From the sequence record PZ229304.1: a stretch of DNA of 64,000 nt; one strand, given 5' to 3'. Below the pieces are notes generated by a model. The model did not search any database, was not told the origin of the DNA, and saw only the letters and a program-made list of their open reading frames with translations. This stretch comes from a phage. Shown here piece after piece: positions 2,632 through 56,577 of the stretch (position 1 is its first letter; the number at the start of each line of letters is the position of its first letter). A program made the translations under genes and the position numbers.

Positions 2632-2967
2632 GGAGTAAAACCATGCCCTATTTACATTTATTTTTCGGTATCTTATTGACGGGATCTTTTTTCTTCTGTA
2701 TGCTTGTTTCTATTGTAAACCACGTTTTAAGACATTAAGGAAACAGCATGAAAATTATTCCCGTACAATATAGCGTAATAAATCCAGCATACGAGGAAGG
2801 AAGGAAAACAAGCATGGCTTTATGTTGTATTACTACTATAGCCATGTTGTTATACATTGTGTTTTAATAGGTTTTATAGTTGTACGCTTTAAAGGCTTGA
2901 CAATTTTTTGTTATGCTTTAAACTATATCTTGAAAACGGCAAAGGCCGCAAACAAAAGGGTAAAATT

Positions 2968-3291
2968 ATGAAATCTGTGATCGGTGTTTATTTGGATAAC
3001 TCTGATTTTTTCTATCATCGCGCTCGTTTCCTTGATGCGATTGAAATGATAGAATCAGGCTTTAAAGAGTATCGCCTTGCACATGATGACCTGGAAGCAT
3101 TACAGGGCAATAGTGTTTTTACATTGCAAGCGAAAGCACTATGTAAAAGCCGGATCGACATTGCGAGCAAAAAGATAGAACGCGGCATGTCCTGGTTGCG
3201 CACCGCAGAAATCAACATGGGGCAATGGCACGGCGAAAACTTAGAAAATAAACATACTTTTGTCAATGTAGAAAATATTGAAGATTATTGA
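2968..3291 (+). CDS. hypothetical protein
   Basis: ORF track, start moved to internal ATG 2968. Confidence 0.4.
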   Translation: MKSVIGVYLDNSDFFYHRARFLDAIEMIESGFKEYRLAHDDLEALQGNSVFTLQAKALCKSRIDIASKKIERGMSWLRTAEINMGQWHGENLENKHTFVNVENIEDY

Positions 3292-3353
3292 TTGACAGCA
3301 CACCTGATAAGTAGTATATTGTATCTCATAGAGCGGGGAAATGGTTTCCCCGC
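3292..3353 (+). promoter_or_regulatory. early promoter (TTGACA 3292-3297) plus PeSL GCGGGGAAA-tgg-TTTCCCCGC (3333-3353)
   Basis: Same cassette architecture. Confidence 0.55.
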
Positions 3354-3373
3354 CTTAAAAGAAGAGATAAGCT

Positions 3374-3658
3374 ATGAAGATCACAAAAGCACTTTCCAAC
3401 TATGCAGCACGTCGCGGCTTATGTTTAACCGTTGAAAACCTGGGGAAAGAAGATTTTTTGTGCTTTTGGGAGCTTGAGAATGATAATGAGTGGATCTTCT
3501 CTTATTCTATCTGCGAAGATCAAAACGGTTGTTTATTAACCTGGCGCGGTAATATCTATCTACCGGAAGAAATCAAAGAAGAATTGCCAGGCACGATCAT
3601 GACTGAGAAACAGCTTAAGGAAGTGATCAATTTTGTAGGGCAAAACATTAAAAAATAA
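3374..3658 (+). CDS. hypothetical early protein
   Basis: ORF track; RBS; PeSL upstream. Confidence 0.5.
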   Translation: MKITKALSNYAARRGLCLTVENLGKEDFLCFWELENDNEWIFSYSICEDQNGCLLTWRGNIYLPEEIKEELPGTIMTEKQLKEVINFVGQNIKK

Positions 3659-3719
3659 TTTGACACCAGGCAAACAACGTAGTAAAGTTTATCACATAGG
3701 GCGGGAAATGGTTTCCCGC
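3659..3719 (+). promoter_or_regulatory. early promoter (TTGACA 3659-3664) plus PeSL (3701-3719)
   Basis: GCGGGAAA-tgg-TTTCCCGC hairpin after conserved CACATAGG. Confidence 0.55.
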
Positions 3720-3741
3720 TCACAACAAAAGAGAACAAATC

Positions 3742-3912
3742 ATGATCCCGACTATGTTTTACGTATCGCGCAAAGGTCACAATATTTTTTGGTCTGAAGA
3801 TTTAAATGAAGCCATGACGTTTGCCCGTGATCGTGTTGCTATCGGTGGCGTTAACATTACTGTAACCGATGAAAACGGCATTGAATACTATAACGGCGAC
3901 GATGAAGAGTAA
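3742..3912 (+). CDS. hypothetical small protein (56 aa)
   Basis: ATG 3742 after GAGAACAAA; open to TAA 3910-3912. Confidence 0.4.
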   Translation: MIPTMFYVSRKGHNIFWSEDLNEAMTFARDRVAIGGVNITVTDENGIEYYNGDDEE

Positions 3913-3919
3913 TTAATGA

Positions 3920-3940
3920 GGCGGGGGAGTATTCCCCGCC
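3920..3940 (+). promoter_or_regulatory. PeSL-like GC hairpin GGCGGGG/CCCCGCC with no recognisable promoter upstream
   Basis: Inverted repeat between a stop codon and the next RBS. Confidence 0.4.
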
Positions 3941-3959
3941 GTCAATAAAGAGGTAAATC

Positions 3960-4229
3960 ATGAAAATATCATTTGACGTTGCAATCAAGGCCATCGAATC
4001 CGGTTACACCCTGGTAAAAGATGATAAGGCTAAAATAGTGCATCATGTTAACAAGGAAACAGGCGAAAGCATGATCACATATAAAGCCGCCTACTTTCTC
4101 CAATCAGTAGCAGATCCGCGCGTACAGCGCCAGGTCACGGCGGCTATTGCTAAAAAATTATGTGCTTTACAGGGCACAAGTTTTAACGAGATCCCGCCGT
4201 GTTTTGACTGGTCGAGCTTGAAAAAATAG
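3960..4229 (+). CDS. hypothetical protein
   Basis: ORF track; RBS AAGAGGTAAA. Confidence 0.5.
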   Translation: MKISFDVAIKAIESGYTLVKDDKAKIVHHVNKETGESMITYKAAYFLQSVADPRVQRQVTAAIAKKLCALQGTSFNEIPPCFDWSSLKK

Positions 4230-4230
4230 T

Positions 4231-4292
4231 TTGACAATATGCGGTTATCTGGTAAAGTGTACCACGTAGGGCGGGGCAATAAGGCAACGCCC
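4231..4292 (+). promoter_or_regulatory. early promoter (TTGACA 4231-4236) plus degenerate PeSL (4269-4292)
   Basis: GGGCG...CGCCC inverted repeat after CACGTAGG. Confidence 0.45.
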
Positions 4293-4308
4293 ACTAATGA
4301 GGGTAAAA

Positions 4309-4413
4309 TCATGTTAGAGAAAATTTTCACGGTTGTAGTAGTGGGCCTGGCGTTATCGGTTGGATTGGTTGCAACTATGGCTAACATGATCCTATCTTCC
4401 CACGGTATTGGAT
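4309..4413 (+). CDS. hypothetical small hydrophobic peptide (34 aa, probable membrane peptide)
   Basis: ATG after GAGGGTAAAA; hydrophobic stretch VVVVGLALSVGLVA. Confidence 0.3.
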
Positions 4414-4425
4414 AAGGTGAATCAA

Positions 4426-4659
4426 ATGATCACGAATAAGACAGGTAAAACAGAATTTTTACGCGGCTTGCAAATAGGTAAACCTGAAATCTGGCATTGC
4501 ACTAAAACACCACGTGACGAAATGAAAGATTTCACCGCTACTTTACAACGTGTTAAAATATCTATCACACAGAAAAAAGCCTTGTTAGTAGTAGAAAACG
4601 AGATCCCGCAAACCAGATCGGGAATGATTTACATTTTACCCGTAACGGTCACGGCGTAG
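4426..4659 (+). CDS. hypothetical protein
   Basis: ORF track, start moved to ATG 4426 after AAGGTGA. Confidence 0.4.
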   Translation: MITNKTGKTEFLRGLQIGKPEIWHCTKTPRDEMKDFTATLQRVKISITQKKALLVVENEIPQTRSGMIYILPVTVTA

Positions 4660-4786
4660 GCTTTTGGGATCGCCCTGAAATATACACTACTAACACCGCC
4701 AACCGCCTAACAAATGCGGCTAAATTAATGCCATCGGTGCATGCTTACATTGGTGAAGATAATTTGATTTATATTGAATAAAAAGT

Positions 4787-4848
4787 ATTGACACCGATCC
4801 CCCAATATGTTACTATTTACCACGTAGGCGGGAAATGGTTTCCCGCCA
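4787..4848 (+). promoter_or_regulatory. early promoter (TTGACA 4787-4792) plus PeSL GGCGGGAAA-tgg-TTTCCCGCC (4828-4848)
   Basis: Third identical hairpin copy. Confidence 0.6.
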
Positions 4849-4870
4849 GGTAATCAAAAAGGTAAATACT

Positions 4871-5260
4871 ATGCGCAACCTGGTTTCTGTTTCTAACGTT
4901 GAAAAATTCCAATCTTTACAGGGTATCGTTAACAACGTAGCGCCTTTTTTAGTCAATGGCTTGATTGCAAAGATGAAGAATAAACATCATGCCGCATGGT
5001 CTGCTTACTGCTTTGACAATGATGAAAAAGCGGCTGAAATGATGTTAAATATGCTGTTAGACAGTGTAGAATCATCTTTACCGGAAAACATCGCAGAAGA
5101 GATCACCTATCGTTATAATATGGCGATCACTTACCAGGAGGTTGCGCAATTTAATATGATGGACGATGACGAACAACAGGATCAGGAAATATTCTGGGAG
5201 TATGCGGATCGTCAATCGGCTTTTGATGAAAAGTTAGCGATGTATTATAACGAATATTAA
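4871..5260 (+). CDS. hypothetical protein
   Basis: ORF track, start moved to ATG 4871 after AAAAAGGTAAA. Confidence 0.5.
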   Translation: MRNLVSVSNVEKFQSLQGIVNNVAPFLVNGLIAKMKNKHHAAWSAYCFDNDEKAAEMMLNMLLDSVESSLPENIAEEITYRYNMAITYQEVAQFNMMDDDEQQDQEIFWEYADRQSAFDEKLAMYYNEY

Positions 5261-5276
5261 TACACGGTAAAAGAAA

Positions 5277-5300
5277 GGGGCGCACTAAGCGCCCTTTTTT
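5277..5300 (+). terminator. rho-independent terminator GGGGCGC-actaa-GCGCCC plus T6
   Basis: GC hairpin plus T-run. Confidence 0.65.
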
Positions 5301-5722
5301 GTATTCTTTTTTCACAATGGAAGCGACACGTAAAGAATAGGCGTAAAGGTGGCGTAAAACCATCTAAAACCGACTGTAACCGCTTAAACAAGGTAGGAAT
5401 GATTAATCACCTTACCAGGATGAAAAAGCTGTTATAAAGCTATATAGGGCGTTTAAAGCACATAGGAAATAATTTGCTTTTTATCTTGCCTTTTATTCTG
5501 CTTTTGATTATTATTATGGAACGGGCGGCACCTGGGAACAGGGGAAGATAATCACCGGACGACCCCGCTATATATTGATAGCTAACATCTATCAAACAAC
5601 AAAACATCAAAGGAATAAACTATCAAATCTTTACAATCTCATCTATTGACCGGTAAATCATAGCAGTTTAATATTGTTTTTAGAGGGTAGAACATACCCA
5701 AAACGAAAACAGGAAAAAGAAA

Positions 5723-5959
5723 ATGAAAGAAGTCATGATCCTCAAAAAATCACCTATTTTACGTGGTGGCTTTATCGCTTACTCTGATGATCTGTTAATT
5801 GCAACGGTTGCAAAAATACTAAAATCAGAAGAGGATAGTAAAAACGGCGTTTATCGTATCTGTTTCACCCGTGGGAAATTGCAAGGCAAGATCGCCTATG
5901 CTTTTGATTTACAAGATGTAAATGATAAAATCTGCGCTGTTATTGATTATGCAAAATAA
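5723..5959 (+). CDS. hypothetical protein
   Basis: ORF track; RBS AGGAAAAAGAAA. Confidence 0.45.
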   Translation: MKEVMILKKSPILRGGFIAYSDDLLIATVAKILKSEEDSKNGVYRICFTRGKLQGKIAYAFDLQDVNDKICAVIDYAK

Positions 5960-6046
5960 TTAACTTTCTTATTGACACCGGATCACGCTTACATTATTAT
6001 TTATCACGTAGGGCAAATCATTTTAAACGGTAAACGAGGAATCACC

Positions 6047-6430
6047 ATGAGCAATATCATCAACCTGGCGGCTACTGTAAACGGTAAAGATTTTAACGGC
6101 GCTGTAGATCGTGATCCTATGTGGTGCTTATCCGTGTTTAAAGGCGATCTGGTTGAAGTTAGAACAACCGAAGGTTATAGCGACGATTATAAATGCGAGA
6201 TCCATTTACACAACTGGTACACGGGTAAAACTTATGCGCTGAATCATGCGTTTATCGGCAAGGTTGAATATAGAGAAATGATCGACGAAGAAACGGGGCA
6301 AGATTTTAGCGATTATGTTTATATCCGTTCCGAGACATTAGCAGAACGTTTGATCGAGAAAATGAAAGCAAAAAATAAAATTAATTTAGCTCATTGGATT
6401 GATATAACAAACGATCCAGCTTATAAGTAA
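6047..6430 (+). CDS. hypothetical protein
   Basis: ORF track, start moved to ATG 6047 after GAGGAATCACC; promoter TTGACA 5972-5977 upstream. Confidence 0.5.
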   Translation: MSNIINLAATVNGKDFNGAVDRDPMWCLSVFKGDLVEVRTTEGYSDDYKCEIHLHNWYTGKTYALNHAFIGKVEYREMIDEETGQDFSDYVYIRSETLAERLIEKMKAKNKINLAHWIDITNDPAYK

Positions 6431-6446
6431 ATGACACTTCACACCA

Positions 6447-6472
6447 GGGCGCACAAAGCGCCCTTTCTTTTT
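6447..6472 (+). terminator. rho-independent terminator GGGCGC-acaaa-GCGCCC plus T-run
   Basis: GC hairpin plus TTTCTTTTT. Confidence 0.65.
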
Positions 6473-6677
6473 ACCTAAATAAAGATGATAGCTTTTACCT
6501 ATCAAAAACGTTCACCGAAAAAAGTGAATAGATCGCGGTATCGAGCTAATCAAGGAGCAGATGAACAACCATACCATGAAGATCATAAGGCGCTTACAGC
6601 GTGTTTTAGACCGCTTATTTTTAATTTCTTCATGCAACTATTTGGCAAAAACAGCCTTTTTCTTGTCTTTCCTCTTA

Positions 6678-8272: not shown

Positions 8273-8731
8273 ATGAAAACTGTATCTTTGTATCTTGCTA
8301 ACACGGAGCGTGTACATAATCTTGTAAAAGAATGCGGTGTGAGTGTTCAATTTAACATAGGAAAGCCTTCCGTGGTGACAGGCAGTGAGATGTGTGTTAT
8401 TGATTTCCTCAATGAATATTTTCGTGGAAAACCTATTGCTCGTCACTTCATTCGAGAAATGCGAGATGTACAACAGGATTATGAATTCTACCCAGAAATT
8501 TGTGAACGCTATGAAACTATTCTTAGTTCTGTAGAAGATCCAGATACCAGTGAAACAGGTGTTTCCCACTTACTGTGGATGTTGAATGAAATTCAGGATG
8601 GGTGTAATGGTATGTCTGAAACCAAACGCCATCGTTGGCTAGGCTATATTCAGGGTGTTATGGTTATGAAAAACCTTATTACAGTGAGTGATGAACGTAA
8701 CGCTACACGCCCCGTCTTTAATGGAGCATAA
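8273..8731 (+). CDS. hypothetical protein
   Basis: ORF track; RBS GAGAGGTG. Confidence 0.5.
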   Translation: MKTVSLYLANTERVHNLVKECGVSVQFNIGKPSVVTGSEMCVIDFLNEYFRGKPIARHFIREMRDVQQDYEFYPEICERYETILSSVEDPDTSETGVSHLLWMLNEIQDGCNGMSETKRHRWLGYIQGVMVMKNLITVSDERNATRPVFNGA

Positions 8732-8732
8732 C

Positions 8733-8948
8733 ATGAAAAGCATTCAGGTGTGTATTGAAAATAATTGTGGTTATCTTGGGTTGACACATGTTGCTTTCCC
8801 TCTTATGTTAGATGCTGATATCGCTTACAGCGGAGTTGCTTATGTGTCATTCAAGACAATGAGCCAAGTACCTGGCTGGAAGTGGGAAGTAGTTGATGTT
8901 GTTGAAGGAGAAGATTATGTTTTCCTTCCACACGAATATACTGTTTAA
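8733..8948 (+). CDS. hypothetical protein
   Basis: ORF track, start moved to ATG 8733 after GGAGCA. Confidence 0.4.
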   Translation: MKSIQVCIENNCGYLGLTHVAFPLMLDADIAYSGVAYVSFKTMSQVPGWKWEVVDVVEGEDYVFLPHEYTV

Positions 8949-8963
8949 AGAGAGGAAAAGAAG

Positions 8964-9146
8964 ATGGATAAACAAACTACTGTGTACTTAGTAACAAAGA
9001 ATACCCTAGACTGGAACCAATGCAGCACTGTCCCTTACAAGATCTGTGCAACATTAGAACTAGCACAACGCGCAGAAGCAGAAGTGGATGCCATGCAAAT
9101 GCAACACAGCTATGGTGAGATCATTCCTCTTACTCTTGAACAATAA
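8964..9146 (+). CDS. hypothetical protein
   Basis: ORF track; RBS GAGAGGAAAAGAAG. Confidence 0.45.
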   Translation: MDKQTTVYLVTKNTLDWNQCSTVPYKICATLELAQRAEAEVDAMQMQHSYGEIIPLTLEQ

Positions 9147-9157
9147 GGATTTGTGTA

Positions 9158-9610
9158 ATGTTTGAAATTGGTAAAGTGTATCGTTTTAAAAACCCATCTT
9201 ATATCCGTAAGTTTGCTAACATGTCTGAGTGCAATAGCAGGATTGCTTCTTTTTTAGGTGATTCCTATTTTCGTGTATTAGATGTGGATGATTGGTATGG
9301 TGTCACTGCTTTGCAATCCTTAGCAGGAGAACAAGAAATTATCGCTCAAAATGAAGGAGACTTTCTTCAGTGTTACACGTTGCTTGCAAAAAGTGAGTTT
9401 GAGTATTTTGTAGAAGTAGTAGAGGAAGCACCAAAAAGTAAACACGAAGAGAAATACCTGCTTGTAGTGGATGGAGTTCCGATCATGGAAACCATCTCCC
9501 GTGAGGAAGTTGAAAAAGAGGCGAAACGTTACAAGCTGGATCGTACACAGGGTGTAGTTGAAATCTATTCTCTTGTTGGTGTTGCAGATATTAGTGTGAA
9601 CATCGTATAA
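9158..9610 (+). CDS. hypothetical protein
   Basis: ORF track; RBS AAGGA. Confidence 0.5.
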   Translation: MFEIGKVYRFKNPSYIRKFANMSECNSRIASFLGDSYFRVLDVDDWYGVTALQSLAGEQEIIAQNEGDFLQCYTLLAKSEFEYFVEVVEEAPKSKHEEKYLLVVDGVPIMETISREEVEKEAKRYKLDRTQGVVEIYSLVGVADISVNIV

Positions 9611-20104: not shown

Positions 20105-20917
20105 TTACTTAGTCAAATGATCTTCTATCATTTTTATGAAAGCAGGATTGCTAAAAGCATCTGCTGCCTTTTCTCTATAAACAAAGACTCCTCTATCTTC
20201 GTAAAGAAGAGTTTCTTCGTAATTAATTCCTGGGTTAACAACAATCATTTTTGTACCCATAGTAAGTGCAGGGAATAATTCCCAATTAAAATTGATAACT
20301 TGGTTTGAACATCCTACTACAACAACCAAATCTTGCATGGTCAAAGTATCAAACAAGTGAGCCATATCTGCATACAAAGGTGCAGCCTCACCAAAAAATA
20401 CAACATTAGGCTTCACCCAGTTATAATCATCTATGTTTATACTATTGTAACCAATGTCTACCAGTGTTTTGTAATCTCCAGGATGCATACGGTAAACTAC
20501 TTCAGGAAGATATCCGTGCACGTGAATAACAGAATCCCTGTCTACACCTGCTCGCTCTAGTAGGTCATCAACGTTTGTTGTCAAGTTTACTACTTGGTTA
20601 GGATATTCCTTAAACCACTTTGCTATTTGAATATGTGCAGCATTAGGTTGTACATCTTTAAGCTCAACACGTCTTTTGTTATAAAATTCGTGTGTTTTGG
20701 CATACAAATCCATACCGTTTTCGTCTACACCACCAACCACTGGAAGATCTGGTGATGTTCTCACACGATAACCTGCTTGGAAAGCTCCAATATCGCAGAT
20801 CTCTTCTAAATCCCATTCTTCCCATAGGGCACGACCACTATCTGTGTCTGTTCGGAATGTTCGAATCCCACTGTCTGCACTTAAACCAGCTCCACTAACA
20901 AAAATTACTCTTCGCAT
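20105..20917 (-). CDS. Sir2-family (sirtuin-like) NAD-dependent enzyme, lacking the zinc-ribbon module
   Basis: GAGLSADSGIRTFR NAD-binding motif, TTNVDDL, catalytic HVHG, VVFFGE; no CxxC pairs. Confidence 0.7.
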   Translation of the reverse strand: MRRVIFVSGAGLSADSGIRTFRTDTDSGRALWEEWDLEEICDIGAFQAGYRVRTSPDLPVVGGVDENGMDLYAKTHEFYNKRRVELKDVQPNAAHIQIAKWFKEYPNQVVNLTTNVDDLLERAGVDRDSVIHVHGYLPEVVYRMHPGDYKTLVDIGYNSINIDDYNWVKPNVVFFGEAAPLYADMAHLFDTLTMQDLVVVVGCSNQVINFNWELFPALTMGTKMIVVNPGINYEETLLYEDRGVFVYREKAADAFSNPAFIKMIEDHLTK

Positions 20918-21459: not shown

Positions 21460-21477
21460 ATATCCTCCACACAAATA

Positions 21478-21505
21478 AAGCCCCTGATTGGGGCTTTGGT
21501 TAAGT
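21478..21505 (-). terminator. hairpin AAAGCCCC-tgatt-GGGGCTTT
   Basis: GC stem flanked by A/T runs. Confidence 0.5.
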
Positions 21506-22245: not shown

Positions 22246-23235
22246 CTATTCCTCCATACATTTAAGAATATGTGCAATGACAGGTATAGTCCAACCGTTA
22301 CCTAACATCTTATATGCTTGTGTGTTACTACTCAGCTTAAAGTAGTCATCTGGCACACCTTGCAAGCGACAACACTCTTTAACCGTTAACTTTCTATAAT
22401 GTACGCCTTCACTCAATTTTTCAAAAGCATCTAGATATCTTCCAGGTGGAATGTAGGCTAATAGTACGTCTTTAGGCACAGTCGTGAGGCAACGAGTTTT
22501 TTCACTGTCCTGAACTTCCAAACAATGTACCAAACGATCAGTTTTAGATGTACTACGTTTGCCATTTTCATTAATTCTACGCCCATATATTGCTGCCGGA
22601 TAAAAAACCAGTTGTCTGCGACTCTTTTCAAAATACTGTTCTATATTACCACCTTTGGCATAATTTGCATCTATGCAATAAGCCTTATCTCTGTCTACAA
22701 TACTATCATCTTCAATGATATCTTGCAACACTTCATTGGTGATCTCCCAGGGTTTTATTTCCCAGTTGCACCAGTATAAACGTTGTCTATTCTGTGCCGT
22801 GAAATCTGCGGAGTTAATGAATACGGGATCAACACCTAAGTAACTTGTGATCACGTTTTCCCACTCCACTTTCATCTTAACGTTTTCAAGCATGAACTTA
22901 ACATTAGGATTAAACTTTTTAATATGTTCAAGAATTTCAACATATTCGAAGAATAGCTTAGATCGCGGATCTTGAAAGTTCAAACCCTTACCAGAAGAAG
23001 AGAAGCCTTGACACGGACTACCACCTAACAAAAGATCAATTTCTCCCCACGGGATATCCCATTCTCTCCATTTTGTAACATCACCTAACTGAATAATATC
23101 TGGAAAATTTGCTTGGCTTTCAGCTATGGCAAATTTGTCTAATTCTGAAGCATAATATGTATCTACTTCAATACCTGCACTTTTTAGCGCAAGCATTCCT
23201 CCTGACATACCATCAAAAAGACTTAAAACTTTCAT
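22246..23235 (-). CDS. dcm: DNA (cytosine-5)-methyltransferase
   Basis: Motif I FDGMSGG, motif IV GSPCQGFS, motif VI FMLENV, motif VIII QNRQR. Confidence 0.8.
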   Translation of the reverse strand: MKVLSLFDGMSGGMLALKSAGIEVDTYYASELDKFAIAESQANFPDIIQLGDVTKWREWDIPWGEIDLLLGGSPCQGFSSSGKGLNFQDPRSKLFFEYVEILEHIKKFNPNVKFMLENVKMKVEWENVITSYLGVDPVFINSADFTAQNRQRLYWCNWEIKPWEITNEVLQDIIEDDSIVDRDKAYCIDANYAKGGNIEQYFEKSRRQLVFYPAAIYGRRINENGKRSTSKTDRLVHCLEVQDSEKTRCLTTVPKDVLLAYIPPGRYLDAFEKLSEGVHYRKLTVKECCRLQGVPDDYFKLSSNTQAYKMLGNGWTIPVIAHILKCMEE

Positions 23236-23237
23236 TA

Positions 23238-23648
23238 TTACTTCTTCTCCTTAACACTAGCTGGTAACTCTACCTTGAGGCAGAAGTTTAAACGGTAAGC
23301 CTCATTCTCATTTAAAAGTACAGATTCACACGATAACCAGAACAAGAGATCCTCAATACTAGGGCTGTTAAGCCAACAGTGCAAAAGAGAATGTTGTTCT
23401 ATATCAATGTAATTTAGTAACAAGGCTTGTAAGGCGTAACTAGTTCCTGTCGTTTTTGCTTTTTCAAGGATGATATTGTGTTTACTAACAACTTTCTTCC
23501 TAAGACCAAACCATTTATTAACAACAACAGTCTCCTCTTGTAGTTGTTTTCTTATTTTCTCACATTCTTTAACTACAATCTGCATCTTATCCACTGCTGA
23601 TTGAAGCTGTTCTTTTGTTGGGTTTACAAAATAGTCACTATAGTACAT
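23238..23648 (-). CDS. hypothetical protein
   Basis: ORF track; coupled to downstream methyltransferase gene. Confidence 0.5.
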   Translation of the reverse strand: MYYSDYFVNPTKEQLQSAVDKMQIVVKECEKIRKQLQEETVVVNKWFGLRKKVVSKHNIILEKAKTTGTSYALQALLLNYIDIEQHSLLHCWLNSPSIEDLLFWLSCESVLLNENEAYRLNFCLKVELPASVKEKK

Positions 23649-23733
23649 GCTAATCTTCTCCTCTTCTGTTTTTCTGTAGTTTATTTGAAAAAACTGGTGT
23701 TGTCAACAAAAAACCCGCCGAAGCGGGTTTATA

Positions 23734-23991
23734 TTATTCTACAGGAACTTCTTCACCAAGAGAAACTTCTAAACGGAATGCTTTACTTTCAATACACTCA
23801 CTACCTTTTAGAAAATCAAATTGCACTATAGACTGACTTAATAGGATAGATAGAATCACATCGCAATCTTCACTGGGCGCTAGATGTTTGTATTCTTCCT
23901 TCAAGGTAACATCATAAAAACATAAATCCCCTACTCCTAGTTCATCCCATCCTTCCCACGCATCTACAAAGTTAAACTCTAAACCTTTCAT
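23734..23991 (-). CDS. hypothetical protein
   Basis: ORF track. Confidence 0.4.
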   Translation of the reverse strand: MKGLEFNFVDAWEGWDELGVGDLCFYDVTLKEEYKHLAPSEDCDVILSILLSQSIVQFDFLKGSECIESKAFRLEVSLGEEVPVE

Positions 23992-24512
23992 ACAACCTCC
24001 TCGTAATTGTTATTGTGTTTTACTGTCTCAACATACAATAAAGATTCCATCTGTAATACATTACCAGAAATAATAAACCCATAAGCCATTTCAGATGTGT
24101 CTATATCATATGCCCCGTCTTCCGGTTTAGCAAAGTGTAAAACTATTTCATCTGGGTTTTCTTCATCCCATAGTTTAGAAATTTTCCGAACCAGAATGTT
24201 AGCTAAAATAGTTGACATTCGGGATAAAGCTGTATCCTCATATCTTTTAAAACCTAGCCAATAGAGGTTAAGAATTTCTACTTCTTCTTGTGTTAAGTTT
24301 TTATCTAAAGTAATCAGATCTGTAGAGCACGGCGTTTTTGTTGAACCTACTGTTACAAAACCTGGAGTGTTATGAAAAACAATCTTAACTTTATCACGTA
24401 TAAAGTTTAAACCTTGTGCCTCAACTATATATTGTATTGTAGGTACAATATCGTTTGTTACATCAATAAAACTATCTTTAATGACGCTTATATTATTTCT
24501 GGACAAGACCAT
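23988..24512 (-). CDS. hypothetical protein
   Basis: ORF track. Confidence 0.5.
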   Translation of the reverse strand: MVLSRNNISVIKDSFIDVTNDIVPTIQYIVEAQGLNFIRDKVKIVFHNTPGFVTVGSTKTPCSTDLITLDKNLTQEEVEILNLYWLGFKRYEDTALSRMSTILANILVRKISKLWDEENPDEIVLHFAKPEDGAYDIDTSEMAYGFIISGNVLQMESLLYVETVKHNNNYEEVV

Positions 24513-25074
24513 TCTCCTCTAAAATAGGCTTAATAAATTCGAAAATTTGTTTTTTACTTTTACCTCTAATATTAAAACAAGGAACATTAAACTTTTTAGC
24601 CAACATCCAAGCTGTTCTTGTACCACCTAAAGGATCTCCATTTTTATCTGTATTTGCACAAGCTAAAAGAAAACAAGATGGTTTTGGATTCTCAAGATCC
24701 CTGCCAAGAACTTGGTGGATATTTCTTTGATGTAATTTTTTAGCACCTTGAGATAATCTGTCCCAAGCTGGATGCAATTCTTTTGCATATTGCAAGGTTA
24801 GAGCATAGTTTACACTATCTGGTCTGTCAAGAACAATAACCTCTCCCTCTATCTCATTACCTTTAAACGAAGGCCAAGGAATGTATATTTCTTTCTTTGT
24901 ATTGTTTCCACTATCATACACCCCGCATTCAAATGCGGAATCTGCACCTTCTGCTTTACCAGATCGTAAAATGAACCATGTAGATAACCATTTTGCAACA
25001 GCTACCATAGTGTCCCATTCTTCGTCTGTAATATCTCTGCTACCAACACCTGTGTAGAATAAATCGCTCATGGT
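24493..25074 (-). CDS. DprA/SLOG-like Rossmann-fold protein
   Basis: Start moved to MSDLF with AAGGAG RBS; GVGSRD...RSGKAEGADSAF resembles the DprA/Smf/LOG pattern. Confidence 0.45.
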   Translation of the reverse strand, partial: TMSDLFYTGVGSRDITDEEWDTMVAVAKWLSTWFILRSGKAEGADSAFECGVYDSGNNTKKEIYIPWPSFKGNEIEGEVIVLDRPDSVNYALTLQYAKELHPAWDRLSQGAKKLHQRNIHQVLGRDLENPKPSCFLLACANTDKNGDPLGGTRTAWMLAKKFNVPCFNIRGKSKKQIFEFIKPILEENGLVQK

Positions 25075-25081
25075 TTTCTCC

Positions 25082-25402
25082 TTAACAAGTAATATTTGGA
25101 ATAATACTGGGAGTAACAATTGGAGTAATAGGGTACGTAAACCAAGGGCTTCCAATTTCCCAAGGACTATAAGGTGTACGAGGATCAAATGGAGGCGTTA
25201 CTTGAGGCTTTTTCCAAATCTCCGCTAGTTGTTTCTTCCATTTATCCCTTGCTGTATCGTTATCTTCATCCAACTGTTCGTCATTATCTTTTATTTCTGA
25301 TTTTGGAAATAAAAGCTCTTTGACTAACTCAACGTCTTCCGTTTCAATAGTAGTTTCTTTCGTAATATTCCCTACCGTCTCTTTAATTGTGACTTTATAC
25401 AT
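25082..25402 (-). CDS. hypothetical protein
   Basis: ORF track. Confidence 0.4.
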   Translation of the reverse strand: MYKVTIKETVGNITKETTIETEDVELVKELLFPKSEIKDNDEQLDEDNDTARDKWKKQLAEIWKKPQVTPPFDPRTPYSPWEIGSPWFTYPITPIVTPSIIPNITC

Positions 25403-26148
25403 TAGTCCTCCTCTAAAGTAGAATAAAATTGTAACGTATTTGAATCATCAAAATATGCAAAGGTTAAATTACCATTGAAGCAAGATCCTGTGTCCATATA
25501 TACCCTATTACTGCTAATTACAGGTTTAGGAACATAAGAATGCCCGTGAAATACATAATCTACTCCTGAAACTCTAGGAAGAAGAATCCCTTCAAGGGCG
25601 CAATCTATCATATCACGATCCCACATTAAAGATTCTGTGAATCGAGATACTTGCTCTTTATTCATATTCAAACAAAATGGCAAAACTTCTGTCACTGGTA
25701 AATGTTCCAAAACTGAAGGATACCCACCGTGAATAAAGCCTAGTTTCATATCACGATAATTGACAACAAGTACAACAGGTAAATCTTCTAGCATCAAAGC
25801 AAGAGCAGTTGCACCCTCTTCTCCACACTCGTCTAGAACTGTATGGCCTCCGTTCTGAAACCAACATTCGTAATATCGTCTATCACCTTCTAGCAACCCT
25901 TTAATCATCATATCTTCATGATTTCCACGAATACCATAACGATTTAGCTTTCTGGTGAATTCAACAACACAACGAAAATTCTGCTTGCCGCGATCTGTAA
26001 GATCTCCTAAAGATACAACAACATCTTGATCTCGGATACCTAAAGTATTAACACCTTTCTGGTACAAATCAAAGCAACCATGTAAATCACCAATAATAAA
26101 TAGGTCTTGATCATCTTTTACACTAATTTCTTGATATACTAGCATCAA
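25402..26148 (-). CDS. PPP-family Ser/Thr protein phosphatase (lambda-phosphatase-like metallophosphoesterase)
   Basis: GDLHG, GDLTDRG, GNHE metallophosphatase motifs. Confidence 0.75.
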   Translation of the reverse strand: MMLVYQEISVKDDQDLFIIGDLHGCFDLYQKGVNTLGIRDQDVVVSLGDLTDRGKQNFRCVVEFTRKLNRYGIRGNHEDMMIKGLLEGDRRYYECWFQNGGHTVLDECGEEGATALALMLEDLPVVLVVNYRDMKLGFIHGGYPSVLEHLPVTEVLPFCLNMNKEQVSRFTESLMWDRDMIDCALEGILLPRVSGVDYVFHGHSYVPKPVISSNRVYMDTGSCFNGNLTFAYFDDSNTLQFYSTLEED

Positions 26149-26471
26149 CTCTCCTCAAAATCCATAAGTATAAAGATATTAACTTTACCTTCTATATTAT
26201 GTTCTACAACAAGATCTGCAAATTCTTTGTAGGCTTTTTCTTCTATTTGTTCAATGTGAGACGCTACATCTTTGTATATAGCGTCACCATCTACTTTAAC
26301 AAGGAGGAATAGAGATCTTACTTCAATCTCTTTATTTTTACGGGGTAGAAAATCGACGGCTTCTTGTATACGCCAGCCGAGATACCCTGGAGTCCTTTGA
26401 ATATCCTCCAAATGACTTTCTAAGATTTCCCTTCCTTTGTCTATTAAAGCCTGTTCTGTCGTTATTTTCAT
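26145..26471 (-). CDS. hypothetical protein
   Basis: ORF track. Confidence 0.45.
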   Translation of the reverse strand: MKITTEQALIDKGREILESHLEDIQRTPGYLGWRIQEAVDFLPRKNKEIEVRSLFLLVKVDGDAIYKDVASHIEQIEEKAYKEFADLVVEHNIEGKVNIFILMDFEES

Positions 26472-26481
26472 CCCCTTCTCC

Positions 26482-27054
26482 TTAATGTGTTAATGAAACT
26501 GCGTAGCTAAACACAGGTTCAGATATTACATCGGCTACAGTAATAAAAACGTCTTCGTCTTGAGTTGTTTCTACACGACATACAGTTACACCATTCACCA
26601 CGAATTCAACGCAATGTGGAATATCTTCACAAACGAAGGTAGTGTAAGTAACACCCAAAGCATCATACAAAGATTTAACAGTGTTTGCAAGTGCCGCAGT
26701 TTCTTCTTTTTCTGAGACAATGAATGCTGTAACAACAAGATTGTTTGCATAGTTTAGACTGTCCTCTATAGCCAATGATTTACAAGGTAGTAATGCAAAA
26801 TATTTACCTGGTTTAATCAGACCTGCTTCCCATTGATTCAAAATTGCTTGGGATGGTTTAGTAATATAAAACAGATTTTCACTTGGGTTATCAATATTAC
26901 TTCTGGCGATACAACGTGAAGGATTATTAATATCAAACACATGATCAAAATCTACACAAACTGGTAAACTGAAAGGTGTGAATTTTTTACCTAATAATCC
27001 TACTGCTGACAATATGTTTACTGTGCTTATCTTCCCGTTAAAAGCTAAACGCAT
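26482..27054 (-). CDS. hypothetical protein
   Basis: ORF track. Confidence 0.5.
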   Translation of the reverse strand: MRLAFNGKISTVNILSAVGLLGKKFTPFSLPVCVDFDHVFDINNPSRCIARSNIDNPSENLFYITKPSQAILNQWEAGLIKPGKYFALLPCKSLAIEDSLNYANNLVVTAFIVSEKEETAALANTVKSLYDALGVTYTTFVCEDIPHCVEFVVNGVTVCRVETTQDEDVFITVADVISEPVFSYAVSLTH

Positions 27055-27065
27055 ATTTAACTCCT

Positions 27066-27269
27066 TTAACTAGCAACCGTAACTTCCGAACTTTCTTCTT
27101 TCGTACTGTCTACGATATGCCTGGTGGCAATATACGAGACTTGCCAGTTACCATCTGGTGTAGTCTCAATAAGTACCCTATCTACTTCGAGAAAATGCAA
27201 AAATTCAACCATCGCTCGCTTCGATAGGAATTGTTTTTTAACAGTCTCCTCAAAAGATTGAACTGCCAT
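27066..27269 (-). CDS. hypothetical protein
   Basis: ORF track. Confidence 0.4.
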   Translation of the reverse strand: MAVQSFEETVKKQFLSKRAMVEFLHFLEVDRVLIETTPDGNWQVSYIATRHIVDSTKEESSEVTVAS

Positions 27270-27278
27270 GTTTCCTCC

Positions 27279-27941
27279 TTATTTAATATTCAATTTTGCA
27301 CAAAGACGTTGTACCGCTTTGGCATCGAACAAACTCCCACGAATAGTTCTCTTTCCTGATTCATTCAGATGCTTTGCAATCGTCATATATGGCGTTTTAC
27401 AAGCTCTGTATGCAACTAAAGAATCTTTTAAAGAAAGCGCAAACTCTTTTGAGCGTTTTGCTTCTTCCGTTTTCGTATAATCTGTTCTTTTGTATTTAGG
27501 GTTTGCTGCACCAAGAAGCGTTCCCTTCGCTTTTGCTACCTTAAGGCTCTTCTTAACACGATCAGATATTGCACGAGCCTCTTCTTCTGCCAGAACTGCT
27601 AAAATATTTATTATCATATTTTCAGCGGAGGGCATAGTTGCTATTCGTACATTAATCATCTCTAACAAGGTTGCAACAGAAGCTGTGTTACGTCCAAGAC
27701 GGTCAACCTTAGCAACAACAAGTGTAGCACCTGTTTCTTTGCAAAGATTAACAGCTTTTACAAGCTCTCTACGTTGCTTCCAATCGCCTTTACCAGAATA
27801 AAACTCTGCAAAGCTACCTACAATAGTATAATTTTCTTGTGAATCCAGGAAGCGTTGAATATCTGCTTCCTGTGATTCTATACCATACTGGTTGCCTTGT
27901 TGTTTCTTCTTAGAAAGTCGATGATATAGTACAAACTTCAT
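27279..27941 (-). CDS. serine recombinase (resolvase/invertase family)
   Basis: YHRLSKKKQ catalytic-serine motif, VAKVDRLGRN, ILAVLAEEEARAISDRV; resolvase-like catalytic domain plus C-terminal extension. Confidence 0.7.
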   Translation of the reverse strand: MKFVLYHRLSKKKQQGNQYGIESQEADIQRFLDSQENYTIVGSFAEFYSGKGDWKQRRELVKAVNLCKETGATLVVAKVDRLGRNTASVATLLEMINVRIATMPSAENMIINILAVLAEEEARAISDRVKKSLKVAKAKGTLLGAANPKYKRTDYTKTEEAKRSKEFALSLKDSLVAYRACKTPYMTIAKHLNESGKRTIRGSLFDAKAVQRLCAKLNIK

Positions 27942-27998
27942 AATACCCTCCTGTTCTGTTACAGGAAGTATGCACTACCTTAATGTTAAAGTCAACAG

Positions 27999-28202
27999 TT
28001 AAGTAGTGGTAATATCATCCTCTTGAATACCAGGGTCAACTTCTGCAAAGATAGCCTCTACAGGAATTTCTTCACCTGCTATTCTAGAAAGAAGCACTGA
28101 ACCAATAGCTTTTGCGTGTTCTTCGGATTCCGCATAAACATTAGTTCCTGTGTCTTTTTTCTTAGTTTCGTTAAAATATACCAGATAGTAATTGTATGCC
28201 AT
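27999..28202 (-). CDS. hypothetical protein
   Basis: ORF track. Confidence 0.4.
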   Translation of the reverse strand: MAYNYYLVYFNETKKKDTGTNVYAESEEHAKAIGSVLLSRIAGEEIPVEAIFAEVDPGIQEDDITTT

Positions 28203-29413: not shown

Positions 29414-30067
29414 TTAATTATCAGAGGACACTTTATCAAGTTTTTCAGAGACTGTCAATACTTTTTCTTGTGATTCTTTCATTTCTGCTAAAATACTTTC
29501 AGCTTCATCACTATCAGGATCACCAGTCAACAGCATACTAATTAGTTGCTCCTTGCTGAAGTTCAGAATATCTTCCGCTGTTAACTCCAGTTGTTCTTCG
29601 ATCTCTTCGATAAAAGTTTCACCGCCTGAAAAAGCATCTCGCAGTTTTGCAACTTCCATCGCTTCTTCTGGAGTTGCCCCTGCATCTAAAGCTGCTAAAG
29701 CAAAATCTGCCCCACTACCAACAGCATAATAATCTTCAGTTAAAGGATATGCTCGCGTTGGATTATTACCCTCGTGCATATAAATTTTACCGTCTGGGTG
29801 AACAACCAATGCCACAAACTCTTCATCTTCTTTATCAGGATCGGACTGGATCACCAAACCTGGGATTGTCTCTTGTGCTGCTTGGCATTGTAAGTTTTGT
29901 TCGAACCAAGAAAAGAAAGTCAGGATAGAAGACAGACGTCCTGCACCACCAACAAGGTAGTCCCCAATTTTACGCACTTTCTTGAAATTTAAAGTGTCTA
30001 CACGACTACCTACTGTTACTTTACCGTCAGACAGAATTTTGTTACGTGTTGCAATAATTGTTGTCAT
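29414..30067 (-). CDS. HslV-like Ntn-hydrolase peptidase (proteasome beta-like) with C-terminal acidic extension
   Basis: N-terminal MTTIIATR (Thr at position 2), GDYLVGGAGR, pattern resembling HslV TTIVSVR...GFAGG. Confidence 0.55.
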   Translation of the reverse strand: MTTIIATRNKILSDGKVTVGSRVDTLNFKKVRKIGDYLVGGAGRLSSILTFFSWFEQNLQCQAAQETIPGLVIQSDPDKEDEEFVALVVHPDGKIYMHEGNNPTRAYPLTEDYYAVGSGADFALAALDAGATPEEAMEVAKLRDAFSGGETFIEEIEEQLELTAEDILNFSKEQLISMLLTGDPDSDEAESILAEMKESQEKVLTVSEKLDKVSSDN

Positions 30068-30558
30068 TGTACTTCCTCCTGTAGTGTTTTAAGGACTGCT
30101 TTACCACCGCTTACATATTTACGGAGGTAATCAATAGCTCTTAGTGTTTCTTTATCCACAAGAATTTTATTAGTTCTTGTTAGTGGATGATTTAGTAAAT
30201 CACTGCAATTTCTTACTAACATAGATTTCTTGTGAAAAATACTGCTAAGAAAAAGAAGTTTAGAATCTTCTTCATCAATCAGGAGTAATTCTGAATTAGA
30301 CCCAGCTACATTTATTATACACTCAAACAAGCCTTCTTGACTATCAGATAATTCCTGGTAATATTTAGTTAGCCAATCCTCGCCTTTTAACCAACTAAAA
30401 AACATCTGAACTTTTTGCAAAGTTGTCATGTTCTCTAAACGAAGAGATATTTCTTTTTCAATCTTGTCAATATAAATCTGTCTAAACTCATTCGGCTTAA
30501 CTAAGCCAGCTTGATAGCATTCATCAATACCATTGCGATCAATCTCAATTAGCGTCAT
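30064..30558 (-). CDS. hypothetical protein
   Basis: ORF track. Confidence 0.5.
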   Translation of the reverse strand: MTLIEIDRNGIDECYQAGLVKPNEFRQIYIDKIEKEISLRLENMTTLQKVQMFFSWLKGEDWLTKYYQELSDSQEGLFECIINVAGSNSELLLIDEEDSKLLFLSSIFHKKSMLVRNCSDLLNHPLTRTNKILVDKETLRAIDYLRKYVSGGKAVLKTLQEEVQ

Positions 30559-30594
30559 TTAACCTCCATAACAGGCATCCTTGCCTTGTAATTA

Positions 30595-31347
30595 TTAGTA
30601 TACTTCCGTGATGAACTGAGACAAACGGGAACGTTGGTTATCAGCAGTTGTCATTTCAACATAACCAATAAAATCCACAATAGCTTCCCTTTCTCCTTCT
30701 TCATTAATAGGAACAACACGATCTAACAAATCACCTAACCCGTTAGCTCTTCGTTTAATTGCATATGTTTGATTAACATCGCCCATAATGACAATACGTG
30801 TATTAAGACCTGCTCGCTCAAGGAGAAGTTTTACTGTATTTGGTGACATAAGTTGAACTTCATCAATAAGAATAATGCTGTTATCCCACGTAGCACCTAG
30901 TGCATAGTTTGGAATATTAAGTTCAATTTTGCCACTTGCAATATCGTTTTCCAATTTATTTGCAGTCATAAACTGTTGGAAAATTCTTTTAGTTGATTCG
31001 TAGTGTGCTGCTAGTTTATCAGTCTTATCTCCAGATAAGAAACCAATTTGATCATCACCTACTTCTGTCGGGTTTTTAAGGAAAATCAACTTTCTGAAAT
31101 CACCAGCTTTAAGCATTTGCAATGCTTTCCACAGTGCTGTTGTCGTTTTTCCTGTTCCTGCTGGGGCATTAACAATGGTTAAATCATTCCAAACCATGCT
31201 TCTTACAATAGCTTCTTGATTCCCAACAGGGGTAAATTCATCAAGACGGTAATCATCATTTCCTACTGCTTTAGCCGCATAACGACTGGCACGTTTGTCA
31301 TCATTGGCTGCTGATTGACGACGAGCCTTTGCGGTTTTATTTCCCAT
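30595..31347 (-). CDS. phoH: PhoH-like P-loop ATPase
   Basis: Walker A NAPAGTGKTT, IGFLSGD, LIDEVQ motifs. Confidence 0.8.
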   Translation of the reverse strand: MGNKTAKARRQSAANDDKRASRYAAKAVGNDDYRLDEFTPVGNQEAIVRSMVWNDLTIVNAPAGTGKTTTALWKALQMLKAGDFRKLIFLKNPTEVGDDQIGFLSGDKTDKLAAHYESTKRIFQQFMTANKLENDIASGKIELNIPNYALGATWDNSIILIDEVQLMSPNTVKLLLERAGLNTRIVIMGDVNQTYAIKRRANGLGDLLDRVVPINEEGEREAIVDFIGYVEMTTADNQRSRLSQFITEVY

Positions 31348-55612: not shown

Positions 55613-56506
55613 ATGAAAGTTAGTATTCTACATGGTGTTGACTGTTATGTTACTGATGTAGACGTTAAAGTCTTTACATTCTCTGGTGGAGAACAGCATG
55701 TTCAACTAGATACGAATCTATCAGGTTTCAATCATGCTACAGACAGAATCTTACTCACTTTAGAAGTAAGATCTGCTAAAGACTTGATGACTTTGGTTAT
55801 GACTAAGAATGCATTGGACAATATGCTATATCATAAACCATATTGTGTTGATTTGCTCATGTTGTATGTGCCGTATGCACGACAAGACAGAGTGTGTGAG
55901 CCTGGGGAAGCATTCGGAGTTAAAGCCTTTGCTTCTATAATTAATTCATTAAATTTCTCACGTGTTATCGTTGCTGATCCACATAGTGATGTTACGCCAG
56001 CAGTGTTTGACAGACTCTGTGTAATACCTCAAGAAGAGATTGCTTACGAAACTTTAAAGTGGAAGTTACGTATGGAGAATTTTGCTCTTGTTAGTCCTGA
56101 TGGTGGTGCTCTTAAGAAAATATTTAAATTATCTAAGAAAATGTCTTTAGATGTGTTCTGTGCAGAGAAGGTTAGAGATACTGCAACAGGTGCTATTGTT
56201 CGTACAGACATTTCTGTACAGGATTTCAATAAGCGTAACCTGATGATCGTAGATGATATCTGTGATGGTGGTAGAACTTTTATCGAATTGGCTAAAGTGC
56301 TACGTGCTCGTAACGCAGGTAAGATTGAGTTATATGTTACACACGGTATCTTTTCTAAAGGTCTTAAAGAGTTAAGTGAGCACTTTGACTGCATTCATTC
56401 TCTTAATGTGTGGGAAGATAACATCCAAGAAGATTCCGGTGTTCTTGTTAAGAATCAGCCAGATTTGCAACAACAAATTGTATCTCCATACGTGTGGAAT
56501 TTTTAA
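55613..56506 (+). CDS. adps: ribose-phosphate pyrophosphokinase (PRPP synthetase)-like enzyme; candidate ADP-ribose pyrophosphate synthetase (Adps) of NARP1
   Basis: Prs-family motifs PYARQDR, VSPDGGALKK, MIVDDICDGGRTF; directly upstream of Nampt-like gene. Confidence 0.7.
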   Translation: MKVSILHGVDCYVTDVDVKVFTFSGGEQHVQLDTNLSGFNHATDRILLTLEVRSAKDLMTLVMTKNALDNMLYHKPYCVDLLMLYVPYARQDRVCEPGEAFGVKAFASIINSLNFSRVIVADPHSDVTPAVFDRLCVIPQEEIAYETLKWKLRMENFALVSPDGGALKKIFKLSKKMSLDVFCAEKVRDTATGAIVRTDISVQDFNKRNLMIVDDICDGGRTFIELAKVLRARNAGKIELYVTHGIFSKGLKELSEHFDCIHSLNVWEDNIQEDSGVLVKNQPDLQQQIVSPYVWNF

Positions 56507-56514
56507 ATAATAAG

Positions 56515-56545
56515 TGTTGACAATAGGGAGTATGCTTAGTAAGAT
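56515..56545 (+). promoter_or_regulatory. promoter-like TTGACA upstream of the Nampt-like gene
   Basis: TTGACA 56517-56522 with AT-rich -10 region. Confidence 0.35.
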
Positions 56546-56577
56546 ACTCCCACACTAACAAACAAGGAGACATAATT

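Follow-up and report, generated by a model that had tools for sequence, protein, structure and literature searches.

The window analysed here, a 64,000-nucleotide stretch of the record PZ229304.1, comes from a phi92-like E. coli myophage of the genus Justusliebigvirus. Its minus-strand gene at 24493..25071, the counterpart of phi92 gp047, encodes a stand-alone Rossmannoid protein of 192 residues that is a member of the phage family phrog_768. We found that gp047 is a DprA-clade SLOG domain, which forms a separate subfamily with conserved DprA-type base-pocket motifs. Because related proteins are fused to ADP-ribose-processing enzymes or encoded next to them, gp047 is more likely to be a nucleotide-pocket module in phage counter-defence against NAD+/ADP-ribose immunity than a classical RecA loader. 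For gp047 itself we infer the ligand (single-stranded DNA (ssDNA), ADP-ribosylated DNA or a free ADP-ribosyl nucleotide), any catalysis and the defence system that is countered.

The first-pass annotation of this region had described a 193-residue DprA/SLOG-like protein next to a lambda-phosphatase-like enzyme. Both open reading frames (ORFs) are genuine genes on the minus strand and encode all of the motifs quoted: the small protein contains YTGVGSRD...LRSGKAEGADSAFE, and the phosphatase contains GDLHG, GDLTDRG and GNHE. The list of ORFs and the phi92 annotation, however, place three genes rather than two within 24493-26148, all on the minus strand. The start of the SLOG gene is the ATG at 25071, which is preceded by AAGGAG 6 nucleotides upstream, so that the protein has 192 residues and not 193. 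Our alignments used 24493-25074, and the residue numbers given below are one higher than the real gp047 numbering. Nor are the two genes adjacent, since a conserved 106-residue ORF, gp048 (25082..25402, minus strand), lies between gp047 and the phosphatase gene gp049 (25402..26148, minus strand). Its stop codon lies 7 nucleotides ahead of the ATG of gp047, and at its start it overlaps the stop codon of gp049. gp048 matches phrog_15301 (E 3.5e-54), has no Pfam match and has no assigned function.

gp047 matches phrog_768 with an E-value of 2e-60, and this family carries the PHROG label 'DprA-like DNA recombination-mediator protein'. On its own the protein gave no match in Pfam (E<=0.1), NCBIfam or PADLOC scans, and a search of the PDB with the single sequence returned noise only. 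The AlphaFold2 model obtained from a 50-sequence alignment (pLDDT, the predicted local distance difference test, 96.6) shows an SLOG/Rossmann fold, in agreement with the free-standing DprA-type SLOG protein proposed at first pass. It consists of a single alpha/beta domain, residues 6-187, and contains neither a SAM domain nor a winged-helix (DML1/Z-alpha) domain. The top Foldseek match is Helicobacter pylori DprA (HpDprA; E 9e-6, template modelling (TM) score 0.54-0.59), followed by ThsA (2e-4 to 1e-3) and LOG (~1e-3). In a fold-comparison list the scores were 15.9 for Moco carrier protein, 15.2 for DprA (3maj), 14.9 for TM1055, 14.7 for DprA (4ljk), 13.9 for LOG, 13.2 for ShosA, 12.1 for YpsA and 10.7 for the ThsA SLOG domain with 3' cyclic ADP-ribose (3'cADPR).

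A PDB profile search with 136 family members retrieved DprA chains only (E 2e-3 to 5e-2). Scanned singly, the same members gave sub-threshold matches to PF02481 (125 members), LDcluster4 (46) and YAcAr (2), and none to PF03641, the LOG family. The best PF02481 match had an E-value of 1.4e-6, with bit scores, where displayed, of 15.6-20.8; neither gp047 nor any family member tested reached the gathering threshold of 29.6 bits.

Both signature motifs of DprA, which Wang et al. defined from the complex of HpDprA with ssDNA (PMC3950713), can be located in gp047. Motif 1 (G-S/T/A-R) corresponds to G11-S12-R13, which is invariant or near-invariant in alignments of 50 and 136 sequences and aligns in profile matches with the GTR of HpDprA (G50-R52) and the GSR of RpDprA. 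Motif 2 (F/L/Y-x-x-R-N/D), F140-N144 in HpDprA, is L114-H115-Q116-R117-N118 and sits in helix 109-123 of the model; H115, R117 and N118 are invariant and L114 is at least 90% conserved. G151 is the counterpart of HpDprA G164 in the profile match. The correspondence between the gp047 and HpDprA pockets is by motif and order, not by residue-level superposition. The first-pass annotation had named a DprA/Smf/LOG-type signature, of which only the DprA part stands. The LOG motif PGGxGTxxE is absent, and the equivalent turn, (K/L)GGT(R/A)TA(W/V) in the family and GGTRTAW here, lacks the acidic residue.

The Rossmann domain of DprA (PF02481; HpDprA 4ljk/4ljr, SpDprA 3uqz, RpDprA 3maj) thus shares its fold with gp047 and provides the best structure and profile matches. 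Both have a G-S-R loop, an SGxAxGxD helix cap, an L-x-x-R-N helix and a GG(T/S)xTA turn, the elements of the base pocket seen in the HpDprA-ssDNA complex (PMC3950713). Major differences can also be observed. gp047 falls below the Pfam threshold, superposes with a TM-score of ~0.55 and consists of one domain, and its PW and RN motifs are separated by ~50 residues. The residues R37, W67, H101, H115 and Q121 are invariant in the family and are not DprA features. All invariant residues lie on one face of the model, at strand ends and helix starts, where Rossmann-like folds bind ligands. Unlike DprA, the family occurs mainly in phages and less often on plasmids, has no link to competence or recombination, and is fused to ADP-ribose hydrolase domains.

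These fusions were surveyed among phrog_768 members longer than 250 residues, all of them strong phrog_768 matches, of which about 20 multi-domain members were scanned. NADAR-SLOG fusions form at least 10 distinct 90% clusters with a mutual identity of only 37-42%, on contigs of up to 250 kb, and the reverse order, SLOG-NADAR, is found in P0300. A DUF4326-SLOG arrangement is present in P0203, P0219 and P0347, and SLOG-Macro in two plasmids, of Erythrobacter and Sphingosinicella. Two proteins of ~1,480 residues (P0122 and P0123) carry in one chain the phrog_768 SLOG, a YAcAr SLOG, an LDcluster4 SLOG and a C-terminal NADAR. Further recurrent partners are phrog_2072 and phrog_9995, at the C-terminus in P0200 and P0225 and at the N-terminus in P0220 and P0249; phrog_2072 contains the motif VFVFGSN..G.HGAGAA ... 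SYAIPT, and neither partner matched Pfam or the PDB. Neither recombination domains nor PPP phosphatases were among the fusion partners in this set. As a separate observation, the NADAR-SLOG fusion gene of the metagenome contigs L087/L088 (3631-9632) is directly preceded by a TraG/VirD4-like coupling protein and followed by a RecD2-like helicase, on a conjugative-type element.

Genes of the same kind recur beside members of the family. Around 80 IMG/VR loci the ORFs were clustered, and the 70 loci with a called SLOG ORF fell into 32 groups at 60% SLOG identity. In 9 of the 32 groups the SLOG gene has a Macro, NADAR, Namat or Adps gene at a distance of no more than 6 kb. Counted by type, Macro is found in 6 groups, NAPRTase/Namat-like genes in 4, and Prs/Adps-like and NADAR genes in 3 each. 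These neighbours share the strand of the SLOG gene in all cases bar one minus-strand Namat-like ORF (L081), and the Macro, Namat and Adps genes are all located upstream of it. The order in Pakpunavirus is Adps, Namat, Macro (annotated 'phosphatase') and SLOG, with the SLOG gene standing after the NARP1-AP operon of Osterman et al. In the unrelated group L020, Adps (2907-3731), Namat (3782-5476), a 152-residue ORF (5537-5995) and SLOG (6001-6570) stand back to back. Since Namat-family genes occur in only ~4% of phage records, and NARP1 in ~4.3% (PMC13464706), the proximity of SLOG and NARP1 looks non-random.

The remaining neighbours are more varied. The most frequent is a PhoH-like ATPase (12/32 groups), followed by ClpP-like and HslV-like proteins (6/32 each) and subunits of ribonucleotide reductase (5/32). 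In Vequintavirinae the SLOG gene directly follows PhoH, in an N4-like phage it adjoins ribonucleotide reductase, and in one other group it lies upstream of DNA polymerase A. In the Vibrio phage Athena (T5-like Thalassavirus; L083, NC_055851, 3668-6461), the halves of a split NAD-dependent DNA ligase are separated by SLOG and a small ORF, among replication genes. On the conjugative plasmid pNL1 the gene is found amid leading-region-type genes (SSB, SRAP, DUF736). The neighbour clusters c144, c207, c208, c120 and c101 have no Pfam match.

The window phage and its relatives encode several genes of NAD+ and ADP-ribose metabolism. A Prs/Adps-like gene (55613..56506, plus strand) and a NAPRTase/Namat-like gene (56578..58311, plus strand) were identified by tblastn of the neighbour clusters and match Pfam Pribosyltran/Pribosyl_synth and NAPRTase, respectively. 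The two genes, 55613..58311, lie side by side at a strand switch near 56 kb, arranged as in NARP1, the phage pathway of NAD+ reconstitution, and are putative Adps and Namat (or Prs and Nampt) genes. A SIR2-family gene, phi92 gp038 (20108..20917, minus strand; Pfam SIR2 E 2.8e-22), is located 3.6 kb downstream of the SLOG gene. In the complete genome of Justusliebigvirus alia (L095, OZ035770), home-made profiles found one Macro and one NADAR gene, at 8520-9362 (minus) and 30208-30756 (plus). PDB searches with these genes matched NADAR 8bau (E 6e-13) and macrodomains (E 4e-15), so a phi92-like phage encodes separately the domains that are fused to SLOG elsewhere. SLOG, SIR2, NARP1-like, Macro and NADAR genes together represent an unusually full NAD+/ADP-ribose gene set for a phi92-like phage.

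The family is already catalogued and large; we found no paper that characterises the function of phrog_768 or connects it with NARP1. An exhaustive phrog_768 profile search returned 5,969 representatives of 50%-identity clusters at E<=1e-3; at E<=1e-30 there were 1,870. Most of the proteins are free-standing and 170-200 residues long. By tblastn, the family is present in 861 of 50,697 phage records, including Pakpunavirus, Vequintavirinae, phi92- and phAPEC8-like phages, T4-like Acinetobacter and Aeromonas phages, T5-like Vibrio phages, N4-like phages and jumbo phages. The family extends to 26 plasmids as well, and 12 of these are conjugative. Among 185,579 species-representative genomes, the stringent and narrow pattern of alignment A3 gave 30 matches and no relative.

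How the pocket would serve counter-defence can be proposed only tentatively. The account that we place first, as a possibility, is that gp047 holds ssDNA, probably ADP-ribosylated, and assists NADAR and Macro erasers against DarT-type defence. The pocket formed by GSR, L-x-x-R-N and GG would grip one nucleotide base and its phosphate, as in DprA. gp047 would in this way bind single-stranded phage DNA, probably with bases ADP-ribosylated by DarT-type toxins, and would then recruit or assist the eraser hydrolases NADAR and Macro, which are fused to the domain in other elements and come from separate genes in phi92-like phages. DarG-type Macro domains erase ADP-ribose from thymidine. Phage NADAR (T4 gp30.3/AdfN) was shown experimentally to act against DarTG1 by stripping ADP-ribose from guanine in DNA (PMC11825919; PMC11543638; PMC11125620). 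This account draws on the DprA pocket as well as the fusion partners, and it fits the plasmid leading-region and replication contexts.

Several points weigh against this account. In the window, gp047 is unfused and no ADP-ribose-related gene lies within 6 kb of it. The NARP1-like pair is ~31 kb away, being directly upstream of SLOG in other lineages only, and home-made NADAR and Macro profiles found no match in the window, both genes lying outside it. The isoelectric point is unremarkable (6.8 for gp047, family median 7.9). Conservation of the pocket motifs cannot separate ssDNA from a soluble ligand, since the pocket residues are common to SLOG families that bind free nucleotides. The Adps-Namat-Macro-SLOG operon, the clearest of the operon contexts, points to the metabolism of soluble ADP-ribose (ADPR) rather than to DNA repair, because the Macro protein Adpp is an ADPR-1''-phosphate phosphatase (10.64898/2026.01.28.702374). 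In the P0146 fusion the NADAR domain is closest to YbiA (E 3e-16), and the YbiA subfamily is reported to act on small molecules too. Finally, the neighbourhood counts are raw, without a formal background, and 9 of 32 overstates independence, since downstream synteny is common to several of the groups (clusters c15 and c120).

A second explanation, which generalises the main idea of the first-pass annotation and which we consider rather unlikely, is that the pocket binds or N-glycosidically cleaves a free ADPR-derived nucleotide from host defence, for instance an isomer of cADPR, His-ADPR or some other ADPR adduct. gp047 would then act as a sponge, or as an enzyme that feeds linear ADPR to NARP1. 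The order Adps-Namat-(Macro or X)-SLOG in both Pakpunavirus and the unrelated L020 group is in line with this, as are the NARP1-like pair and the SIR2 gene of the window phage. Precedents exist in the NARP1-adjacent proteins Adpp (Macro) and RyDEP, which turn ADPR derivatives into ADPR (10.64898/2026.01.28.702374; PMC13232231). Free nucleotides are the ligands of LOG- and ThsA-type SLOG domains, and in the EVADES preprint AMP was modelled into the corresponding pocket of the sister family (10.1101/2025.06.06.658234). However, gp047 has GGTRTAW in place of the catalytic LOG motif, and the ThsA SLOG is a weaker structural match than DprA. A screen of 72 phage lysates detected cADPR cleavage for one mycobacteriophage only (PMC13232231), with the inclusion of phrog_768 phages not established. 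In the window, moreover, the NARP1-like genes are 31 kb from gp047, so that the gene is not part of a NARP1 or NARP1-AP operon as it is only in, for example, Pakpunavirus and L020, and the plasmid leading-region and replication-gene contexts fit an ssDNA role better. gp047 shares with the ThsA SLOG (7uxs) and the LOG phosphoribohydrolases (5wq3, 9us2) the superfamily fold and a ligand face at the C-terminal ends of the strands. It is not a ThsA-type sensor, that is, a 3'cADPR-binding SLOG fused to a SIR2 or transmembrane effector.

The nucleotide-centred anti-defence role raised in the first-pass annotation is partly supported in its general form, by the NADAR, Macro and DUF4326 fusions and by 9 of the 32 neighbourhoods. 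The sponge role specifically was not borne out, and we found no specific evidence for the proposed link to Thoeris or cADPR. Taking the two accounts together, it is doubtful, if conceivable, that phrog_768 represents a new counter-defence class, one that either reads ADP-ribosylated ssDNA bases for NADAR/Macro erasers or acts as a new N-glycosidase or sponge for an ADPR-derived signal (e.g. N-linked cADPR or His-ADPR), supplying NARP1 with linear ADPR.

A role against ADP-ribose-derived host signals was predicted computationally for viral SLOG domains associated with Macro, NADAR, Nudix and DUF4326 (Iyer, Burroughs, Anantharaman and Aravind 2022, PMC9503650), which also lends weight to a soluble ligand. 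The central feature of that network, fusions and neighbourhoods with Macro, NADAR and DUF4326, is found at the level of the phrog_768 family, as are stand-alone copies in large phages and co-occurrence with NAD+ salvage. The viral SLOG domains of that study belong mostly to the YpsA-like/YAcAr clade, whereas here a DprA-like clade carries the ADP-ribose-type fusions, and the gp047 family does not belong to the YAcAr or YpsA-like profiles (PF10686, PF06908). DprA or SLOG is not mentioned in the NARP1, NARP1-AP, NARP3 or phage NADAR papers.

One related phage protein has been studied genetically. Deletion of ORF83 of phage DruSM1, annotated 'Smf/DprA', lowered infectivity on AVAST type III (bioRxiv 10.1101/2024.04.14.589459), and the protein has been modelled with AMP bound (10.1101/2025.06.06.658234). 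From exact matches at R89, N90, T112 and D114 we identified ORF83 as the counterpart of CAjan gp82, and gp82 is a YAcAr SLOG (PF10686 E 2e-18). We considered whether gp047 is the equivalent of ORF83 and rejected this, as ORF83 belongs to the YAcAr sister family. Both are small free-standing phage SLOG proteins with a GxR(D), R-x-G-x-A-x-G-x-D, PW, RN, GG.GT pattern. They differ in length (192 versus 130 residues), PF10686 matches only 2 of 136 phrog_768 members, and weakly, and the hhalign probability is 16%. The evidence on ORF83 is a knockout phenotype only, and deletion of the neighbouring ORF84 had a stronger effect. ORF83 nevertheless gives the only experimental hint that such small phage SLOG proteins may have an anti-defence role.

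A canonical DprA-like function, in which gp047 would attach to the ssDNA of the phage and either load or modulate RecA (or a phage recombinase) or just shield the ssDNA in replication and recombination, appears improbable. No family is nearer in sequence and structure than DprA, both ssDNA motifs are kept, and some contexts are close to replication genes. The Rossmann domain of DprA binds ssDNA alone (PMC3950713), and phage DprA/Smf copies, handled separately from the SLOG network, were suggested to be extra ssDNA-binding proteins (Iyer et al. 2021, PMC7824862). Against this, every member tested scores below the PF02481 gathering threshold, the SAM and winged-helix domains are missing, and the invariant residues R37, W67, H101, H115 and Q121 find no counterpart in DprA. 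Recombinase, annealase and single-stranded DNA-binding protein genes, and likewise RecA/UvsX, are not recurrent phage neighbours in the 80 viral loci, and no recombination or competence gene was found beside SLOG in five annotated phage regions inspected. The repeated NADAR, Macro and DUF4326 fusions would also be left unexplained. Among the roles offered at first pass, that of recombination mediator was the least supported.

A functional pair of gp047 and the phosphatase, for example one in which the phosphatase dephosphorylates an ADPR-phosphate or nucleotide bound or made by the SLOG protein, is more improbable still. Judged from its sequence, gp049 (248 residues) is an ordinary lambda/NinI-type PPP enzyme with all catalytic motifs present, GDLHG (20-24), GDLTDRG (48-54) and GNHE (75-78), as the first reading of the DNA had it. 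It matches Pfam Metallophos (PF00149, 50.5 bits versus a cut-off of 21.5), phrog_246, 'NinI-like serine-threonine phosphatase' (E 7e-76), and the lambda Ser/Thr phosphatase 1g5b (E 4e-30, residues 4-231); the NCBIfam PrpA/PrpB, ApaH and PrpE models match below their cut-offs. With lambda NinI (1g5b) and E. coli PrpA/PrpB it shares the PPP family and the GDxHG, GDxxDRG and GNHE motifs; it differs from them by being ~25 residues longer and by falling below the PrpA/PrpB equivalog cut-offs. In phi92- and phAPEC8-like phages the genes form a tight and apparently co-transcribed array. A NinI-type phosphatase is found within 6 kb in 5 of the 32 groups, in 4 of them within 2 kb upstream, and PPP relatives include the nucleotide hydrolases ApaH and PrpE, which match weakly here. 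On the other hand, gp048 separates gp047 from gp049, the pairing is absent from most lineages, and none of the ~20 multi-domain members is a SLOG-PPP fusion. The best gp049 matches are protein phosphatases (1g5b, PrpA/PrpB), and the known NARP1-associated phosphatase is a Macro domain rather than a PPP enzyme. The partnership suggested by the first-pass annotation thus fared poorly.

It is very hard to credit that gp047 imitates ShosA, the DprA-like antitoxin of ShosTA (PMC12961424), to silence the ShosT toxin, since gp047 lacks the SAM domain and C-terminal helix that ShosA needs for stability and dimerisation, matches it no better than it matches ordinary DprA, and has neither a PADLOC match nor contextual support.

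The preferred reading, a nucleotide-pocket module in counter-defence, has consequences for annotation. The standard phrog_768 annotation is probably misleading, and if either counter-defence account is true, the label 'DprA-like recombination mediator' would be wrong in over 860 phage genomes. As a component so far missing from the toolkit that phages use against ADP-ribose-based defence, the family is a credible candidate. Should the connection to ADP-ribose be borne out, a gene that hundreds of therapeutic-candidate phages (phi92-, rV5- and PAK_P1-like, T5-like Vibrio and N4-like) carry, and that is routinely given the recombination-mediator label, would be an immune-evasion factor, and a new component would join NARP1, Adpp, RyDEP and AdfN in the NAD+/ADP-ribose arms race. 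Beyond natural transformation, it would also be the first biochemical role for the DprA branch within the SLOG superfamily.

The locus is well conserved among close relatives. Over their full length, bases 23000-28000 share 98.2-99.6% identity with phi92, vB_Eco_J-01, muut, PaulScherrer and ~50 other isolates, and the SLOG/phosphatase region is matched in 56 sequenced phi92-like phages (98-99.6% identity). Downstream of the SLOG gene lies gp046, a 174-residue ORF with no assigned function (23988..24512, minus strand; phrog_8569 E 1e-55), which overlaps the SLOG stop. Consensus scans alone identified a promoter-like site, TTGACA-17-TAAAGT, at 29458..29430 and a terminator-like GC hairpin followed by a T-run at 23711..23730, both on the minus strand. 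gp047, gp048 and gp049 are tightly packed, and the two sites suggest one minus-strand transcription unit from 29458..29430 to 23730..23711. The unit that contains the phosphatase, gp048, SLOG, gp046 and gp045 probably ends at the hairpin 23730..23711.

Perfect GC-rich hairpins at 23711-23730 and 21477-21497 score as terminators on both strands. Directly after the first of these, a TTGACA promoter-like site at 23706..23678 suggests closely spaced transcription units. Upstream of the phosphatase gene, the 190-residue ORF phi92 gp051 (26482-27054, minus strand) carries the PHROG/RefSeq label 'histidyl tRNA synthetase' (phrog_4806), which looks unreliable because the ORF has no Pfam match and is much too short for a synthetase.

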